From a virus (lineage: Duplodnaviria; Heunggongvirae; Uroviricota; Caudoviricetes), in IMG/VR virus record IMGVR_UViG_2778261450_000003, positions 1 through 38,191 of that record: a stretch of DNA of 38,191 bases; one strand, written 5' to 3'. Made by a program: the position numbers and the translations under genes. Below, in pieces: positions 21,355 to 27,016 of this stretch (position 1 is its first letter; each line of letters opens with the position of its first letter). Below the pieces are notes generated by a model, which made no database searches, was not told the origin of the DNA, and saw only the letters and a list, made by a program, of their open reading frames with translations.

Positions 21355-23142
21355 ATGGCGTACTCTGATGAAGTGATTGCTGCAGCAAAATCACTCTATC
21401 TGAAAAGGCACACCCCAAAAGAAATACAAAAGAAGCTCGGACTGAACAGCCCGCGAATTGTTTATTACTGGGCGACAAAGTTTGAGTGGTACACACAGCT
21501 TAATACTGAGGGCGTGGAGGATGTCATCGCCCGGCGTCTCGCTGTACTGGCGGAGCGTGACCATAAAACCCAGGAAGAGCACGATGAACTCGATCGCCTG
21601 ATTGGCCACCACGTCAAACTGATGTCGGTCAGGAACAAGCACACAGAACGAATGGCCGAGATAGAACGAATGGGGGCTGATATTCCCCGGTCTGGCCGTT
21701 ATGGAAAAGAAGAGCGCGGAGAAAAAGACGCGGATAAGAAAGAGCGTCGTCGTAAAGCTAATGATGTGTCAGGGCTGACAGCAGAGAGTTTTGAGCCGTT
21801 TACCAAAAAACTGTTCGCTTATCAGTTGCATCTGCGTGAAAACAAATTCCGTCGTGTACGCAACCTGCTTAAATCGCGCCAGATTGGGGCGACGTATTAC
21901 TTCGCGTTTGAGGCGTTCGAAGATGCGGTATTAACCGGCGACACACAGATATTTTTATCGGCATCAAAACGTCAGGCCGAAGTGTTCCGCACCTATATCG
22001 TTAAGATTGCACAGACGGAATTTGGCATTCCCATTAAAGGCAACCCGGTTAAGTTAAGTAATCTGGCTGAACTGTATTTTCTGGCGACCAACAGTAACAC
22101 GGCGCAGTCAAACAGCGGCCACCTGTACATTGACGAATATCTGTGGATCCCCGGCTTTCGTCGCCTCAATGAAGTGGCGTCCGGTATGGCCACCCACTCG
22201 CACTGGCGCATTACCTACTTCTCCACGCCGTCAACCAAAACCCATCAGGGCTATCCGTTCTGGTCTGGCGATGAATGGCGCAAAGGCGATCCGAAACGAA
22301 AAGGGGTTGAGTTTCCGTCCTTTGATGAGCTGCGCGATGGCGGGCGCGAATGCCCGGATGGCCAGTGGCGCTATGTGGTGACAATGGAAGATGCCATTGC
22401 CGGCGGCTTTAACCTTGCTGACATCAACGAACTGCGCGAGCGGTACAACGAAACAGCCTTCAATATGCTGTTTATGTGCGTGTTTGTGGATGACAAAGAG
22501 AGCGTCTTTAAATTCGATGACCTCGTGCGCTGTGGCGTTGATATCAGTACGTGGGAGGATTTTCACCCGGAAGATGCCATGCCATTTGGAAACCGTGAAG
22601 TGTGGGGCGGCTTTGACCCTGCGCGCTCCGGCGATAACGCCACGTTTGTGGTGCTGGCACCACCGCTGGTTGCGGCAGAACGATTCCGCGTGCTGGAAAA
22701 ACACCACTGGCGGAGTATGTCATTCCAGTTTATGGCAGAGCGTATCCGCAGCATTAAGGCGCGCTATAACATGACGTTTATCGGCATTGATGTTACCGGG
22801 CTTGGCTATGGTGTCTTTGAGCTGGTTCAGGGATTTGCCCGCCGTGAAACAGTGGCCATTCATTACAGTGTTGAATCCAAAAACCGCCTGGTGATGAAGA
22901 TGCTGGATCTGATTTACGCCAACCGTATTGAGTGGGATGAGGAAGCCACAGATATTCCGGCATCATTTCTGGCCATCCGTCAGGAATCCACCAACAGTGG
23001 CAATAAAGTTACTTTTACCGCTGAACGTAGCGAAGAAACCGGGCACGCTGACATCTTCTTTGCCATCGCCCATGCAGCAAGTAACGAACCCCTGAACTAT
23101 AAGCACAAGCGCAAATCAACATGGATCCTGCCAGATGAGTAA
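21355..23142 (+). CDS. terminase large (ATPase) subunit, P2 gpP-like
   Basis: 595-aa ORF divergent from the capsid operon and overlapping the portal gene start. Confidence 0.8.
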   Translation: MAYSDEVIAAAKSLYLKRHTPKEIQKKLGLNSPRIVYYWATKFEWYTQLNTEGVEDVIARRLAVLAERDHKTQEEHDELDRLIGHHVKLMSVRNKHTERMAEIERMGADIPRSGRYGKEERGEKDADKKERRRKANDVSGLTAESFEPFTKKLFAYQLHLRENKFRRVRNLLKSRQIGATYYFAFEAFEDAVLTGDTQIFLSASKRQAEVFRTYIVKIAQTEFGIPIKGNPVKLSNLAELYFLATNSNTAQSNSGHLYIDEYLWIPGFRRLNEVASGMATHSHWRITYFSTPSTKTHQGYPFWSGDEWRKGDPKRKGVEFPSFDELRDGGRECPDGQWRYVVTMEDAIAGGFNLADINELRERYNETAFNMLFMCVFVDDKESVFKFDDLVRCGVDISTWEDFHPEDAMPFGNREVWGGFDPARSGDNATFVVLAPPLVAAERFRVLEKHHWRSMSFQFMAERIRSIKARYNMTFIGIDVTGLGYGVFELVQGFARRETVAIHYSVESKNRLVMKMLDLIYANRIEWDEEATDIPASFLAIRQESTNSGNKVTFTAERSEETGHADIFFAIAHAASNEPLNYKHKRKSTWILPDE

Positions 23143-24169
23143 AAAGAAGAAATATTCTGTGACACACGATGCCGGAGCAAAAAAAACGGCCGGCAAAATG
23201 ACGTTTATTGAATTTGGTGACCCCGAACCGGTTGCTGCATGGGGCTGTTATTACGGCTCGCTGTGGGATGGTTATAACGGCTGGTACACGCCGCCCATTG
23301 AGCGCATGGATCTCGCCATGTTGTCCAATATCGCGCCGTATCACGGCGCAGTATTGCGTGCGCGCGTCAATATGATTATGCAGGGTTTTCGGGGCGGTGG
23401 GGGTATGACACACGCCGCCATGGCGGCAGCAGTGACCAATCTGCTGATATTCGGGGATATGGGGCTGCTTAAAGTACGTAACGGCTTCGGTCGGGTGGTG
23501 CGTCTGCATACGTTGCCTTCTCTGTATCTGCGGCGTAACAACGAGGGAGGCACGGTGATTGTGCAGGCGGCACTGGAAGATCTCGTGTATCCGCCAGGCG
23601 AAGTGGTGTTCGTGGCCATTTATGACCCGCAACAGCAGGTTTACGGTGTCCCGGATTATATCCACGGGATGGAATCCGCCATGCTGAATGTGGATGCCAC
23701 CCGCTTTCGCCGCAAGTATTACAAGAACGGCGCACACCTCGGTTATATCCTGTATTCCACTGACCCGGATATGACTCCCGAGCTCGAGGCGGAATTCCGT
23801 AAAAAGATAGAGGGGTCAAAAGGGGCGGGCAATTTTAAATCCATGTTCATCAATATACCGGGCGGAGACAAAGAAGGGGTTAAGGTGATTCCTATCGGGG
23901 ATTCAGGTACAAAAGATGAGTTCCTGAATATAAAAACCATCAGTGCTCAGGATCAGCTCGTGGCGCACCGTTTTCCACCCGGACTTGCCGGCATCATTCC
24001 CGCAAATACGGCCGGGCTTGGCGACCCACTTAAATCCCGCGAGGCATATTACAGGGATGAGGTTATTCCGATGCGCCGTCTGATTATGGAGGGGATCAAC
24101 AGTGACCCGGATATCAGGCGACTGGGGGAGGTGAAATTTATTCTTGAATTTAACGAATCCACGGAGTGA
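23135..24169 (+). CDS. portal (capsid vertex) protein, P2 gpQ-like
   Basis: 344-aa ORF, the length of P2 gpQ; overlaps the terminase 3' end by 8 nt. Confidence 0.8.
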   Translation: MSKKKKYSVTHDAGAKKTAGKMTFIEFGDPEPVAAWGCYYGSLWDGYNGWYTPPIERMDLAMLSNIAPYHGAVLRARVNMIMQGFRGGGGMTHAAMAAAVTNLLIFGDMGLLKVRNGFGRVVRLHTLPSLYLRRNNEGGTVIVQAALEDLVYPPGEVVFVAIYDPQQQVYGVPDYIHGMESAMLNVDATRFRRKYYKNGAHLGYILYSTDPDMTPELEAEFRKKIEGSKGAGNFKSMFINIPGGDKEGVKVIPIGDSGTKDEFLNIKTISAQDQLVAHRFPPGLAGIIPANTAGLGDPLKSREAYYRDEVIPMRRLIMEGINSDPDIRRLGEVKFILEFNESTE

Positions 24170-24234
24170 TGTGCGGTATGGGGAAAGAGCGGGTAAAATC
24201 GGCGGCAGTAAAACGCTGTTCCGGGAGGTGGAAA

Positions 24235-24492
24235 ATGCGCAGACAGAAAGCGCGATGTCATTGCTGCGGTGCACATGCAGTGATTGAGAAAACAGCCTGG
24301 AAAACCGATCAGTTTGCTGATGTGTATTACCGTTGCACCCGTCTCGAGTGCGGACATACCTGGGTGATGAATCTGACCTACTCGCACACACTGGTGCCCA
24401 GCGGGCTGGATAACGGTGTGTTAAAGCTGTTGATTGAACGGATGCGCCCGGAAGAAAAACAAATGGCGCTGGAATTGTTGCAAGCGGGTTAG
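24235..24492 (+). CDS. Ogr/Delta-family zinc-finger late-gene transcriptional activator
   Basis: 85 aa from the internal ATG at 24235 with GGGAGGTG RBS; C-x-CC ... C-x4-C pattern (CHCCGAHA ... CTRLEC) matching the Ogr Cys4 finger; the track's longer ORF overlaps the portal gene. Confidence 0.65.
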   Translation: MRRQKARCHCCGAHAVIEKTAWKTDQFADVYYRCTRLECGHTWVMNLTYSHTLVPSGLDNGVLKLLIERMRPEEKQMALELLQAG

Positions 24493-24735
24493 TGTTTTTT
24501 TTGGGGGGTAAGGTAGCGCCAACCTCTCAGCTGGCGTGGTTGGAGTCCCAGTCTAACGACGAAGTGACCAACTAGGCGGTATCAACTTTTTTTGGGAGCC
24601 GCCTCTGAATCCCCAAAATATTCAATACAGTCTGCAAGTGAAAAGTAACGTTTAATGAACTTAAATTCAACGATAACCGTATTTGCGATATGGGTTCACC
24701 TTGACTACAGCGACTGACGCGCTTCGCTTGTCCAA

Positions 24736-24780
24736 CCCGGAACGGGCGCACAAAGAATTTGCGCACCCGTTCCGGGTTTC
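24736..24780. terminator. strong bidirectional intrinsic terminator
   Basis: 11-bp GC-rich stem CCCGGAACGGG / CCCGTTCCGGG with a short loop, followed by TTT on the + strand; lies between the convergent ogr and the 95-aa gene. Confidence 0.6.
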
Positions 24781-24796
24781 ATTCCCTGATATTCAG

Positions 24797-25084
24797 TCAG
24801 CGTGGATAAATTAACTTGAATTTGAGGAAGTTTTGTTTAATCCAGTCTTTAACATTTTCCCTTCCCTGAATACCTGATGGTAAGTGTTCGTGAATCATCC
24901 ATTCAACAATGAGTTTTTCTTTCAGGGTGTATGCCTTAAAGGAATTAAGCATATTTAGTACTTCATAACCTTCTTTGCGGCTAAACCGATGGCGGTCAGC
25001 AGCGGTTTTCGTGGGATCATCTCCTGGCAAAGCAGTCCAACTGTAATCGTCATAAAATAAATCGCTTCTTTTGATATCGGTCAT
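24797..25084 (-). CDS. hypothetical protein, second gene of a two-gene accessory cassette (AT-rich)
   Basis: 95-aa ORF with AAAGGA RBS; markedly AT-rich relative to the prophage; followed by the strong terminator; no family recognised. Confidence 0.5.
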   Translation of the reverse strand: MTDIKRSDLFYDDYSWTALPGDDPTKTAADRHRFSRKEGYEVLNMLNSFKAYTLKEKLIVEWMIHEHLPSGIQGRENVKDWIKQNFLKFKLIYPR

Positions 25085-25149
25085 TTGATTATCCTTTCAG
25101 AAGAACCACCTCGCCAACCATTGTTGAGGTGGTGAAAAAGCAAAAATCG

Positions 25150-25428
25150 TTACGCAGCTTTGAGCAGAGCGCTGCTCATTGCATAGTCGTACCCAAGCAT
25201 GTATGCCTCAAAGGCATCTTTATGTCTGACTGTGCCAGCCTGGCTATATGGAATATTTGCCAGGAAGGAATCATCTTTTGCTTTAGGAATACCGATCATT
25301 GCATGAAGTACACCAAGCTCGTATGCGCAGGCTGCGCAGCGGTGGCGGCCTGTTTGCTCTTGGTTATCGGGAAGGTGTGAGTATTGGGGGTTGTATCGGT
25401 GGGAATTTTTACAAATCTTTATACCCAT
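25150..25428 (-). CDS. hypothetical protein, first gene of the two-gene accessory cassette
   Basis: 92-aa ORF with a CAAC motif; preceded by a ~170-nt structured leader. Confidence 0.5.
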   Translation of the reverse strand: MGIKICKNSHRYNPQYSHLPDNQEQTGRHRCAACAYELGVLHAMIGIPKAKDDSFLANIPYSQAGTVRHKDAFEAYMLGYDYAMSSALLKAA

Positions 25429-25599
25429 ATTTGATTTACCTCAATAAAATGAGGTGTTCACCTTTACATGGGCACACACAGAAAATACGATTCTGGCGAG
25501 CTCAAGAGGTAGATGACACCTCGTTTTCTTTGGCGCCCCGATAGTTACCGCTATTGGGGCGTTTTCCTATGCATGACACACAAACAAAGTGGTCATATC

Positions 25600-25640
25600 G
25601 TGATCGATCCTACAAAATCCCACACAGCTGTCAAGGGTAT
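25600..25640 (-). promoter_or_regulatory. candidate sigma70 promoter (TTGACA-N16-TAGGAT) for the two-gene cassette
   Basis: Perfect -35 hexamer on the - strand at 25629-25634 with a TAGGAT -10-like hexamer 16 bp downstream; nested palindromes lie just upstream at 25651-25693. Confidence 0.3.
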
Positions 25641-25737
25641 TGATCGTTTTAATCGATAGATAAATCAATATCTATCTGTTTAACAGATCGATTATTAAGG
25701 TAAGCATGGGGGCACCCCATAAAAGGTGTTTTATAGG

Positions 25738-26052
25738 TTATTCTGGAAAAAACGCCTGAATATTCTTTTTCACCTGCTGCATAGGGTGGGCGCTGGCTGT
25801 TGCTGGTTGCGCCTGTTTTTCAGGCTGCACTGGCAGCGATGTCATCCGTATTTCGTCTTCTGACCATTCTGCCAGCGAATACGCCAGTGCGGGGGCACGT
25901 TTTATGAGTGCCAGTCCAGCCAGAAAGGCCGCGCGTTGTGCGCGGCTGCGTTCCGAGGCTGGCAGGCTGTCGAGGTAATTGCACGCCTCCTGTTCACTCT
26001 TGACGGCGGCTGGCTTCAGATAGAAACTTATCCGTCTGGTTGGTGACGTCAT
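25738..26052 (-). CDS. parR: ParR/StbB-like centromere-binding partition protein
   Basis: 104 aa from the ATG at 26052 with AAGGAG RBS, 4 nt after the parM stop; DSLPASERSRAQRAAFLAGLAL closely resembles the R1 ParR region DSIPQGERSRLNRAALTAGLAL (from memory). Confidence 0.7.
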   Translation of the reverse strand: MTSPTRRISFYLKPAAVKSEQEACNYLDSLPASERSRAQRAAFLAGLALIKRAPALAYSLAEWSEDEIRMTSLPVQPEKQAQPATASAHPMQQVKKNIQAFFPE

Positions 26053-26056
26053 TGGT

Positions 26057-27016
26057 TTACTCCTTGTCCATTGCGTACAGCCCATTAACCAGAGCAAACT
26101 GTGGCACCCCGTCCGCGATGAAAGTCGCATTAACTCCGCAGGCTTCGCGGATAGCGGGTGCCACAATATCAGCCCCTCCACCGACAACCATCACCCGTCC
26201 GTACCCCGAAAAACCAGCCAGCGCACGGATCACACGTTGTTTCAGTGTTTCTTCCTTTTCATGAATAACCGCCATCAGGTTGGCGTAATGCGCGTCATTG
26301 TGAATGTGCTGGCGCAGCCAGGCTTCATCGTGGCGATGTTCGATAATGGTATTGGCGATGTGGTGACTGGTGCGCATACCGTTAGTGGCCATCACCGACA
26401 GTACAGCATCGGCCATCAGAGAAACGCCTACGTGTGGATCGCAAAACACCTGGCTGATACCTGCCAGTTGTCCCTGAACCTTTGCCACATCCAGCGTGGT
26501 TCCGCCTAAATCAACAATAAGCAGGGATTCAAACGGACTCATGTCAGCCAGCGCCTTAAAGCCTGCCGGAATGGATTCAGGCATAACCCGCACGTTACGG
26601 ATAGTGAATGCTTTGCCGTTCTGGTACTCCACCGGGCGCATGACGTTCGCTTTTTTTCGGTTGATGTTTGCCATGTCCGGCTGTGCGTTTGTGTCGAAAT
26701 ATTCGCTCAGTGGCAGGGTGACAACCACATCCACTTCCTGTGGCGTGATGCCTGATTTGACCAGTGCGTGATGAATGGCAATGACATTCACATCACTGTA
26801 CTGGTATTGCGTGTCGGTCGTCTGGACAAAGCGATCGCTGACCGGATCAAAACCATAGCGCACGCTATCAAGCATGTAGTTCGCGGGCTGCATGCCACCG
26901 AACGGCGCAGACCATTCCGACTTGAAGCTGTTCGGGCTGATGGCGTTGCGGCGTTCGCTGTTCTCAGTCCATGCCAGCTTGATGTTGGTTGAGCCGTCGT
27001 CGATGTAAATTTTCAT
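26057..27016 (-). CDS. parM: ParM/StbA actin-like plasmid segregation ATPase
   Basis: 319-aa ORF with AAGGAA RBS; N-terminus MKIYIDDGSTNIKLAW...ISPNSFK...YQYSDVNVIAIHHAL matches remembered R1 ParM (MLVFIDDGSTNIKLQW...ISPNSFK...WQYSDVNVVAVHHAL). Confidence 0.85.
   Translation of the reverse strand: MKIYIDDGSTNIKLAWTENSERRNAISPNSFKSEWSAPFGGMQPANYMLDSVRYGFDPVSDRFVQTTDTQYQYSDVNVIAIHHALVKSGITPQEVDVVVTLPLSEYFDTNAQPDMANINRKKANVMRPVEYQNGKAFTIRNVRVMPESIPAGFKALADMSPFESLLIVDLGGTTLDVAKVQGQLAGISQVFCDPHVGVSLMADAVLSVMATNGMRTSHHIANTIIEHRHDEAWLRQHIHNDAHYANLMAVIHEKEETLKQRVIRALAGFSGYGRVMVVGGGADIVAPAIREACGVNATFIADGVPQFALVNGLYAMDKE

Follow-up and report, generated by a model that had tools for sequence, protein, structure and literature searches.

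Whether two small genes that lie side by side in a prophage form one functional unit is the question raised by the locus considered here. The genes are found in a 38,191-nucleotide stretch of DNA (hereafter the window; IMG/VR record IMGVR_UViG_2778261450_000003, positions 1 to 38,191), which is a P88-like P2-type prophage (Xuanwuvirus, Peduoviridae). The stretch from gpA to gpQ (gpA to the portal gene) is a published cargo hotspot of P2-like phages and harbors old and tin in P2 (PMC9122126, Rousset et al. 2022). A first-pass annotation of the window had described a self-contained two-gene cassette at this site and had proposed a phage-defense or toxin–antitoxin (TA)-like function for it. The reading that we favor is a different one: the interval would hold two accessory genes ("morons") that move independently of each other and now sit in tandem in the gpA-to-portal hotspot, and the first of them (gene 1) would be RNA-gated in the manner of a type I TA system. 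We consider the prospects of this reading as a whole to be about even. Its main components are the following.

25150–25428, minus strand: gene 1, 92 amino acids, soluble and basic, with a CHCC zinc-type motif and an SQAGxVRHK motif (PHROG 3941)
24797–25084, minus strand: gene 2, 95 amino acids, helical, 38.9% GC (PHROG 33929), independent and associated with defense islands
24734–24778, no strand: hairpin with arms of 21 base pairs (bp) that separates the cargo from Ogr/cos; a conserved boundary element belonging to the backbone and not to the cargo

Gene 1 and gene 2 are distributed independently

Both open reading frames of the first-pass annotation are present on the minus strand, and the purifying selection acting on them marks both as real genes. 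The ratio of nonsynonymous to synonymous substitution (dN/dS) is 0.03 for gene 1 and 0.12–0.30 for gene 2, measured against diverged relatives for which dS is saturated or high. The AT-richness noted earlier also holds, with a GC content of 38.9% in gene 2 and 47.7% in gene 1 versus 52–57% in gpA, ParM, and the portal gene.

The presence of gene 2 beside gene 1 was assessed by tblastn over all fetched loci (designated by L numbers). The two genes occur together only in the closest gene 1 lineage, in E. coli (L001, L002, and L018), IMG/VR (L019–L022), and Citrobacter (L109). Of the 80 IMG/VR loci with gene 1, more than 75 lack gene 2; these loci span at least three phage architectures. Without gene 2, gene 1 fills about 37 P88-like slots and is also present in a small Klebsiella integrative island. 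A P22-like Salmonella phage carries it alone between cI and N, and a lambdoid Providencia phage has it on the opposite strand, flanked by Q and the lysis genes. Gene 2 without gene 1 is the last gene before the portal gene in P2-like prophages of Pectobacterium and Dickeya, where either a ClpX-zinc-finger gene and Dam or IetA/IetS lie upstream of it. It also occurs in chromosomal islands beside GajA/GajB, PDC-S52, a type II restriction–modification system, AbiJ, a SIR2 candidate (PDC-S25), and a patatin-like protein. No gene 2 locus outside the E. coli/Citrobacter lineage contains gene 1. The co-occurrence across lineages expected of a two-gene, type II-like pair was not found.

These distributions, together with a terminator-like hairpin in which gene 1 ends, do not support a self-contained two-gene cassette. 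The further idea that gene 1 and gene 2 nevertheless act jointly, as one defense or TA cassette, seems to us quite unlikely. It is true that the two genes have one promoter in common, that gene 2 begins 12–20 nucleotides (nt) past the gene 1 hairpin, where a promoter of its own would not fit, and that the pair has been retained in P88-like prophages of E. coli and Citrobacter although gene 2 has diverged to 67–84% identity. Against joint action stand the loci in which either gene lacks the other, the hairpin that separates the genes, and the exchange of gene 2 alleles: in the four E. coli copies that carry both genes, gene 1 and its leader are 97–99% identical, and the 3′ half of gene 2 has been swapped. 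In addition, no fusion of gene 1 to gene 2 is present among 532 gene 2 representatives.

Gene 2 itself belongs to a family of 41 clusters by word search and of 532 representatives at 50% identity by a full HMMER search. Almost all relatives are standalone proteins of 90–105 residues, and identity remains at 55–60% from E. coli to Pseudomonas and Janthinobacterium. The model of gene 2 (predicted local distance difference test (pLDDT) of 88) has an extended N-terminal segment with DYSWTAVPGDDPTKT, followed by three helices; no match was found in Pfam or NCBIfam and none to a fold. Three representatives are fused to DUF4332 or helix-hairpin-helix domains, which hints at a DNA-related role. Gene 2 has no conserved upstream element, and the sole promoter match ahead of it (25117–25088) was rejected because transcription would start inside the start codon. 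In the window, gene 2 is therefore reachable only by read-through of the gene 1 hairpin. We picture gene 2 as an unrelated small helical protein of defense islands that would have landed downstream of a leaky terminator and would be expressed by read-through. As a well-conserved 95-residue protein that recurs beside known defense systems, it merits a phenotype screen of its own.

The third component is the hairpin at 24734–24778, which had been described as a strong terminator of the cassette. The hairpin is real, but it has no proper T-run on either strand, is not called as a terminator, and is part of the backbone and not of the cargo. The 66 bp around it (24714–24779 of the window) are 100% identical in at least 36 complete E. 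coli genomes regardless of the neighboring cargo, and in K_EC180 the hairpin adjoins quite different genes. These 66 bp could serve as a boundary or as a terminator, or they could belong to the cos region.

The gene 1 leader and its predicted antisense RNA

The constant companion of gene 1 is its leader, in which a convergent cis-antisense small RNA (sRNA) is predicted to be encoded wherever gene 1 and the leader occur together. This predicted RNA was missed in the first-pass annotation, and the structure of the unit differs from that proposed. The idea of a TA-like element has something to it, but the constant partner of gene 1 is the predicted RNA rather than gene 2. The elements of the unit are listed below (RBS, ribosome-binding site; SD, Shine–Dalgarno sequence).

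25498–25566, plus strand: predicted cis-antisense sRNA, ∼69 nt, complementary to about +35 to +103 of the gene 1 mRNA
25463–25491, plus strand: antisense promoter, TTTACA-N17-TACGAT, with the −35 element and T1, A2, and T6 of the −10 element invariant
25532–25565, plus strand: antisense terminator hairpin (stem 25532–25562), then TTTT; covarying
25607–25634, minus strand: sense sigma-70-type promoter of gene 1, TTGACA-N16-TAGGAT, matching at 10 of 12 positions (the best in the region); predicted start ∼25600
25639–25692, no strand: nested palindromes upstream of the sense promoter, a possible operator; sequence unique in the window
25429–25600, minus strand: structured 5′ leader of the gene 1 mRNA, about 172 nt; same architecture in 22 diverged leaders
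25438–25456, minus strand: predicted RBS-sequestering hairpin, ACCTCA-TTTTA-TTGAGGT, with the SD GAGGT at 25442–25438
25522–25516, minus strand: upstream GAGGTGT ("anti-anti-SD") inside the antisense-covered stretch; 25443–25457 pairs with 25516–25530 in the minimum-energy fold
25105–25133, minus strand: terminator-like hairpin, then TCTTCT; weak terminator of the gene 1 unit

The layout was first seen in four diverged loci, and an IMG/VR scan then yielded 97 loci with 26 distinct leaders. In an alignment of 22 diverged leaders (alignment A5; mean column identity of 54%), 15 columns are invariant. Nine of these 15 read GTAAAG and A...TA on the sense strand, which on the other strand is TTTACA and a −10 element TA...T, always exactly 17 nt apart. 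The antisense promoter is retained even in relatives with 45% protein identity. At ∼35–70 nt past it, every lineage has a GC-rich hairpin of differing sequence with a U-rich run on the antisense side, and the relatives at 45% protein identity have canonical antisense terminators with TTTTTT.

The antisense hairpin covaries. RNAalifold reports compensatory changes in 7 of the 8 pairs of the terminator helix. Over 34 sequences, in an alignment that was fitted to the model and thus favors it somewhat, 88.6% of the hairpin cells are paired compared with 65% in shuffled controls, and 55 cells are changed on both sides compared with 19; none of 500 shuffles reached the observed values. The covariation score is 0.64 and is at most 0.23 in registers slid along the alignment. 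G-U pairs number 26 on the antisense strand versus 8 on the sense strand, indicating that the hairpin has been selected in the antisense transcript. A covariance model of the RNA (R1) gives one match per locus, always antisense to the cargo gene, including at 12 loci outside model building; in the 38-kb window, its single match is at 25495–25570 on the plus strand (E = 2.3e-9).

The same conserved positions could instead belong to the sense mRNA, with GUAAAG and the hairpin serving as a protein-binding or processing site or as a 5′ stabilizer in an ordinary structured leader and with no antisense RNA being made. A complementary hairpin inevitably forms in the sense mRNA and is of similar stability in several lineages. 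However, the invariant positions coincide exactly with those of a sigma-70 promoter on the opposite strand (TTTACA, 17 nt, TAnnnT), 24–26 G-U pairs would become A-C mismatches on the sense strand, and the U-run lies on the antisense side in every lineage, being canonical in the distant ones. We regard a leader without an antisense RNA as highly improbable.

No Rfam family reached its threshold in the window or in ten relatives, and no RNA is annotated in RefSeq at the gene 1 leader locus. The best Rfam match of the antisense RNA is the terminator hairpin of P22 sar (RF00262), which has the same GUUACCGC loop; the match scores 25.5 bits against a whole-model gathering score of 43 and covers only model positions 35–62 of 68. 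A tRNA scan returned no match.

The sense promoter and the leader of about 172 nt (∼25600 to 25429) are as had been described before. Promoter-like sites in the region do not exceed chance (4 versus 2.3 ± 1.5 expected), and the sense promoter has equivalents in diverged relatives: TTGACA-16-TAAGAT, TTGAAG-17-TAGGAT, and TTGATC-17-TATAAT. The nested palindromes are likewise present. They are part of the gene 1 module in P88-type phages only and are found in both diverged gene 1 modules of P88-like phages. A role as the ParMR centromere was rejected because P88 retains ParMR but not the palindromes. LexA control was also considered and set aside: the window has CTGT-N3-ACAG and no LexA box, and a perfect CTGT-N8-ACAG is present in L060 only and is not conserved. 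The LexA-box-like sequence of L060, CTGTAAAAAAATACAG, lies ∼60 nt upstream of the sense −35 element, and related lineages have imperfect versions (GTGT or ATGT ... ACAG).

When the window is compared with the Citrobacter-type copy, identity is 92% over the leader and 96% over the sRNA stretch versus 62% at third positions of gene 1 codons. All lineages have a hairpin over the SD, built from different stems (CCTCA/TGAGG, CACCTT/AAGGTG, CCTGT/ACAGG, and CTTTCT/AGAAGG). At the other end of the unit, the intergenic hairpin noted in the first-pass annotation is confirmed, with 13-nt arms and 8 perfect pairs. The Citrobacter variant (L022 and L109) has a different sequence here that forms the same hairpin by compensatory change and is followed by TTTTCT, and other phages have canonical terminators at this position.

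GATC is 5.7-fold enriched in 24 gene 1 leaders (14.2 per kb versus 2.5 per kb elsewhere in the same loci). Its positions are conserved: upstream of or within the sense promoter, where the antisense transcript is predicted to start, and in the spacer of the antisense promoter. The window lineage keeps GATC only at the sense promoter (25602–25609 and 25642–25645) and has lost the two sites near the antisense promoter.

Together, the elements from ∼25105 to 25692 (module 1) would form a self-contained RNA-gated unit. The strong sense promoter would produce an mRNA with the 172-nt leader, in which the RBS would be sequestered by the hairpin beside the gene 1 start codon. The convergent promoter inside the leader would produce the ∼69-nt antisense RNA, complementary over its full length to the 5′ portion of the leader and predicted to pair with the gene 1 mRNA as the antisense RNA of a type I system pairs with toxin mRNA. 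As predicted from the window fold, the upstream GAGGTGT would compete for the anti-SD sequence as long as the antisense RNA is not paired, thereby freeing the RBS, and antisense pairing would remove this competitor and close the RBS. Consistent with this prediction, blocking the antisense-covered stretch lowers the predicted unpaired fraction of the SD region from 0.55 to 0.24 in the window lineage. A general mechanism in which the antisense RNA closes the RBS was set aside, as it held in the window lineage only. The long sense–antisense duplex should also invite cleavage by RNase III, and across lineages the general mechanism may be duplex-triggered cleavage or a block of ribosome standby binding. 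On this scheme, synthesis of gene 1 protein would require a drop in the antisense RNA relative to its mRNA target, and the sRNA would act as a brake on gene 1. This predicted architecture is well supported by the comparative evidence.

The gene 1 protein and the role of the module

By profile, the gene 1 family comprises 1322 clusters throughout Enterobacterales, all standalone proteins of 81–92 residues with no Pfam domain and all annotated as hypothetical. The invariant residues are Cys6, His10, Arg11, Leu19, Gln23, Arg28, His29, Cys31, Cys34, Ala35, Ser62, Gln63, Ala64, Arg68, and His69. An AlphaFold model (pLDDT of 82) shows a zinc knuckle and three helices, with C6-x3-H10 within the N-terminal knuckle and C31-x2-C34 opening the first helix, such that the CHCC residues may form a treble-clef-like zinc site. 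The protein probably binds nucleic acid, and we expect it to be either harmful or strongly regulatory. A helix motif, A(Y/F)xxGYxxG, is repeated within gene 1 (residues 31–45 and 64–81) and gives weak, subthreshold matches to the first helix of ribosome modulation factor (RMF). Homology to RMF (PF04957) was rejected: the matches span 11–17 residues only (the AxxxGYxxG helix), with a best E of 0.0018 and 18.8 versus 27.9 bits, and the hhalign probability is 2.9%.

The first-pass annotation recognized neither protein, and the searches bear this out. Neither matches any core P2 protein, nor Pfam or NCBIfam models. In PHROGs, only families of unknown function were hit (3941 for gene 1 and 33929 for gene 2); profile searches of both against PDB sequences gave nothing meaningful, and Foldseek with gene 1 against BFVD gave nothing at E ≤ 0.001. 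Searching the literature by accession and by topic turned up no account of the two proteins or the antisense RNA.

Distant gene 1 homologs without the leader are found in Dam-type operons (L098:1593-3252 and L011:960-2839). One such operon combines a D12 methyltransferase, a PD-(D/E)XK nuclease, and gene 1, and another has gene 1, a D12 methyltransferase, and an N6_N4 methyltransferase with a convergent MutH-like nuclease and a helix-turn-helix (HTH) gene. Elsewhere, a 129-residue open reading frame overlaps the start of a distant gene 1 beside RelB/ParE, or gene 1 follows a RelE-like/HTH pair.

These contexts raise the possibility that the gene 1 protein binds DNA in connection with GATC (Dam) methylation, for instance as a regulator or sensor of methylation state, and that the module is switched by hemimethylated or unmethylated DNA. 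The enrichment of GATC at conserved positions in or next to both promoters would agree with such a role, as would the embedding of two unrelated distant homologs in restriction–modification operons with D12-class methyltransferases and the zinc-type motif and many invariant basic residues of the protein. However, DNA binding by gene 1 is putative, the leaders are related by descent such that the GATC enrichment does not represent independent events, the window lineage has lost two of the sites, and the restriction–modification contexts are only two among more than 1300 clusters. We therefore find a Dam-dependent factor very unlikely.

The leader is also found apart from gene 1. An exact-motif scan returned 22 loci, in 21 of which gene 1 follows at 76–88 nt. 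Counting two further scans, nine loci (L116:2330-3285, L140, L146, L155, L162, L172, L173, L176, and L206) have the same leader ahead of a gene for a 233-residue Bro-N domain protein instead of gene 1. The leader is thus a portable regulatory cassette, and its portability suggests a general "keep-off" device for genes whose unchecked expression would be too costly for a lysogen. A portable leader of this kind fits a toxin or abortive-infection effector and an antirepressor-type regulator alike, without deciding between them.

The second of these options, in which gene 1 is not a toxin but a small antirepressor or phage developmental regulator held off in the lysogen by an immI-like antisense RNA, has known models. 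Ant is kept off by sar in P22 and by c4 in P1, and the antirepressor Tum of phage 186 lies at the equivalent genome end. Bro-N is typical of annotated antirepressors, and the sRNA terminator hairpin has sar as its best Rfam match, with the identical GUUACCGC loop. That match, however, is confined to the hairpin and stays well below the gathering score. Gene 1 has no sequence or fold similarity to known antirepressors; its family is found in P2-like, P22-like, and lambda-like phages, the repressors of which are unrelated, and also in nonphage islands and restriction–modification operons. In addition, Bro-N/KilA-N proteins in the cI–N slot can be abortive-infection proteins, as is BstA (bioRxiv 10.1101/2020.07.13.199331). 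On balance, an antirepressor appears unlikely.

We return to the type I-like reading. By analogy, module 1 may act as a type I TA or abortive-infection switch, or as a switch of the P22 sar–ant kind, that benefits the lysogen. In keeping with a benefit to the lysogen, gene 1 is found in slots used for defense genes expressed in lysogens, namely the P2 gpA–Q hotspot (PMC9122126) and the cI–N slot of lambdoid prophages, which is used by BstA (bioRxiv 10.1101/2020.07.13.199331). It is this location that suggests a defense function for the interval.

Several observations weigh against this reading. Most type I toxins are small hydrophobic membrane peptides, with SymE and RalR as exceptions. Gene 1 is not such a peptide (grand average of hydropathy of −0.39, isoelectric point of 8.5, and a maximum Kyte-Doolittle value over 19 residues of 1.08). 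The predicted antisense RNA ends ∼65 nt upstream of the gene 1 start codon and does not overlap the RBS, and the remote closing of the RBS predicted for the window lineage is not consistent in others. Both transcription starts, like the sRNA, are predictions from the sequence. The toxicity of gene 1 and any role in phage exclusion are matters that we infer, and the leaderless homologs in Dam-type restriction–modification operons fit a regulator at least as well as a toxin. Neither protein has a match among solved or viral predicted folds, and neither matches a family at E ≤ 1 in PADLOC-DB 2.0, which includes Old, Tin-locus systems, and PARIS, leaving location as the argument for defense. Last, gene 2 of E. 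coli and Citrobacter, which has no space for its own promoter, has kept its place behind gene 1 as its sequence diverged to 67% identity, a persistent pairing that leaves some room for a functional link between the two genes.

A more far-reaching possibility, about which we are doubtful, is that gene 1 and its antisense RNA represent a large undescribed family of RNA-gated modules in prophages and islands of Enterobacterales, with a soluble zinc-binding effector in place of a membrane peptide and with two convergent promoters that read Dam methylation, a new class of type I toxin or abortive-infection system, with gene 2 as a second new factor. Foreign or replicating DNA, or a shut-off of transcription, would then upset the RNA balance and release gene 1 protein, and the recurrence of gene 2 next to Gabija, IetAS, SIR2, and restriction–modification systems would be part of the same picture.

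In the reading that we favor, the supposed two-gene cassette would resolve into an RNA-gated single-gene module, an independent passenger gene, and a backbone hairpin. New here are a predicted and unannotated small RNA and a portable, apparently "tight-off" leader that goes with a family of more than 1300 protein clusters. Should gene 1 turn out to be toxic or to exclude phages, RNA gating of the type I kind would be extended to a nonmembrane zinc protein, and the compact leader could be used as a silencing part.

The cargo slot and comparison with known systems

The interval is flanked by genes of the phage backbone.

27093–29915, minus strand: gpA replication endonuclease, a backbone neighbor
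26057–27016, minus strand: ParM, adjoining the interval
25738–26052, minus strand: ParR (Plasmid_stab_B), 104 amino acids, as annotated in relatives
24166–24492, plus strand: Ogr/Delta zinc-finger gene, beyond the interval
23135–24169, plus strand: portal gene
21355–23142, plus strand: large terminase gene

The mechanically called ParR reading frame (25738–26187, minus strand) is longer than the annotated gene, encoding 149 amino acids from a TTG start and overlapping the end of ParM; its Pfam match begins at residue 51. The Ogr/Delta-type reading frame extends across the stop codon of the portal gene. In relatives its annotated version is shorter at the start (85 amino acids), and some relatives, such as SW070912, have no annotated Ogr gene at the portal-adjacent place. 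The cos region of the phage is probably the noncoding stretch between Ogr and the hairpin (24500–24730 of the window), in which a GAGGCGG-like motif and runs of T/A occur.

The proposal that this site is equivalent to the tin/old hotspot of P2 and holds variable cargo is borne out. The interval lies downstream of ParMR, between gpA/ParMR and Ogr/portal, and both its position and its variable content place it in the gpA–gpQ hotspot. In the slot between ParR and the hairpin, P88 has a ClpX-type zinc-finger protein and a hypothetical protein, K_EC180 has an Rrf2 regulator and a different 95-residue protein, and phage 520873 has a gene 1 homolog only. Among 5426 complete E. coli genomes, 7 carry the window-type cassette and 166 (∼3%) the 520873-type gene 1 module, which is the commonest form of gene 1. 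In E. coli strain CH4793, an IS1 element is inserted in a 520873-type module (NZ_CM166350.1, 1996472–1997819, hit H60). A ClpX-type C4 zinc-finger protein of ∼110 residues recurs in the hotspot of two P2-like lineages, P88 (L106:2848-3180) and Pectobacterium (L004:4847-5173), and in one of them its gene is directly upstream of Dam and gene 2.

The P2 hotspot has already yielded new antiviral systems, and its small orphan genes are usually passed over. Compared with the tin/old locus of P2, the interval has the same position between replication gene A and the portal/cos region, content that varies among close relatives, low GC content, and a promoter of its own. In contrast, its proteins have no similarity to Tin, Old, or any PADLOC system, and in this phage lineage the ParMR partition module shares the interval.

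A second comparison is with BstA and Rex, defense genes in the cI–N slot of lambdoid prophages (bioRxiv 10.1101/2020.07.13.199331); in P22-like phages, gene 1 or its Bro-N alternative occupies that slot. There is no homology, however, and the control differs. BstA is transcribed from the repressor promoter at high levels in lysogens; gene 1 has a separate promoter and a predicted antisense brake.

Among type I TA systems, the relevant ones have antisense control in the 5′ leader (hok/sok, ldr/rdl, tisB/istR-1, and zorO/orzO, and, with nonmembrane toxins, symE/symR and ralR/ralA). Unlike these systems, gene 1 encodes a soluble, basic, zinc-type protein of 92 residues that is not homologous to known type I toxins, and its antisense RNA would be fully cis-encoded yet would not cover the RBS and matches no Rfam antitoxin family. 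The likeness is in the organization: one small protein gene on a mobile element, a self-contained unit from promoter to terminator, a long structured leader with an RBS that may be occluded, and a short, constitutively promoted antisense RNA that is predicted to pair with the leader.

A further comparison, for the RNA, is with the immI region of P22 (sar/ant, RF00262) and with c4/ant of P1. Gene 1 is unrelated to Ant, with no Ant, Bro-N, or KilAC domain, and has no arc or mnt partners. The sar RNA covers the ant RBS, whereas the predicted gene 1 antisense RNA (25498–25566) misses the SD at 25438–25442, and the resemblance of the two RNAs is limited to the hairpin (25.5 versus 43 bits). In both cases, however, a convergent antisense RNA, here predicted to be ∼69 nt long, lies in the leader of a gene that needs to be silent in the lysogen; the terminator hairpins have the same length and the same loop (GUUACCGC), and the gene 1-type leader sometimes carries a Bro-N gene of the antirepressor type.

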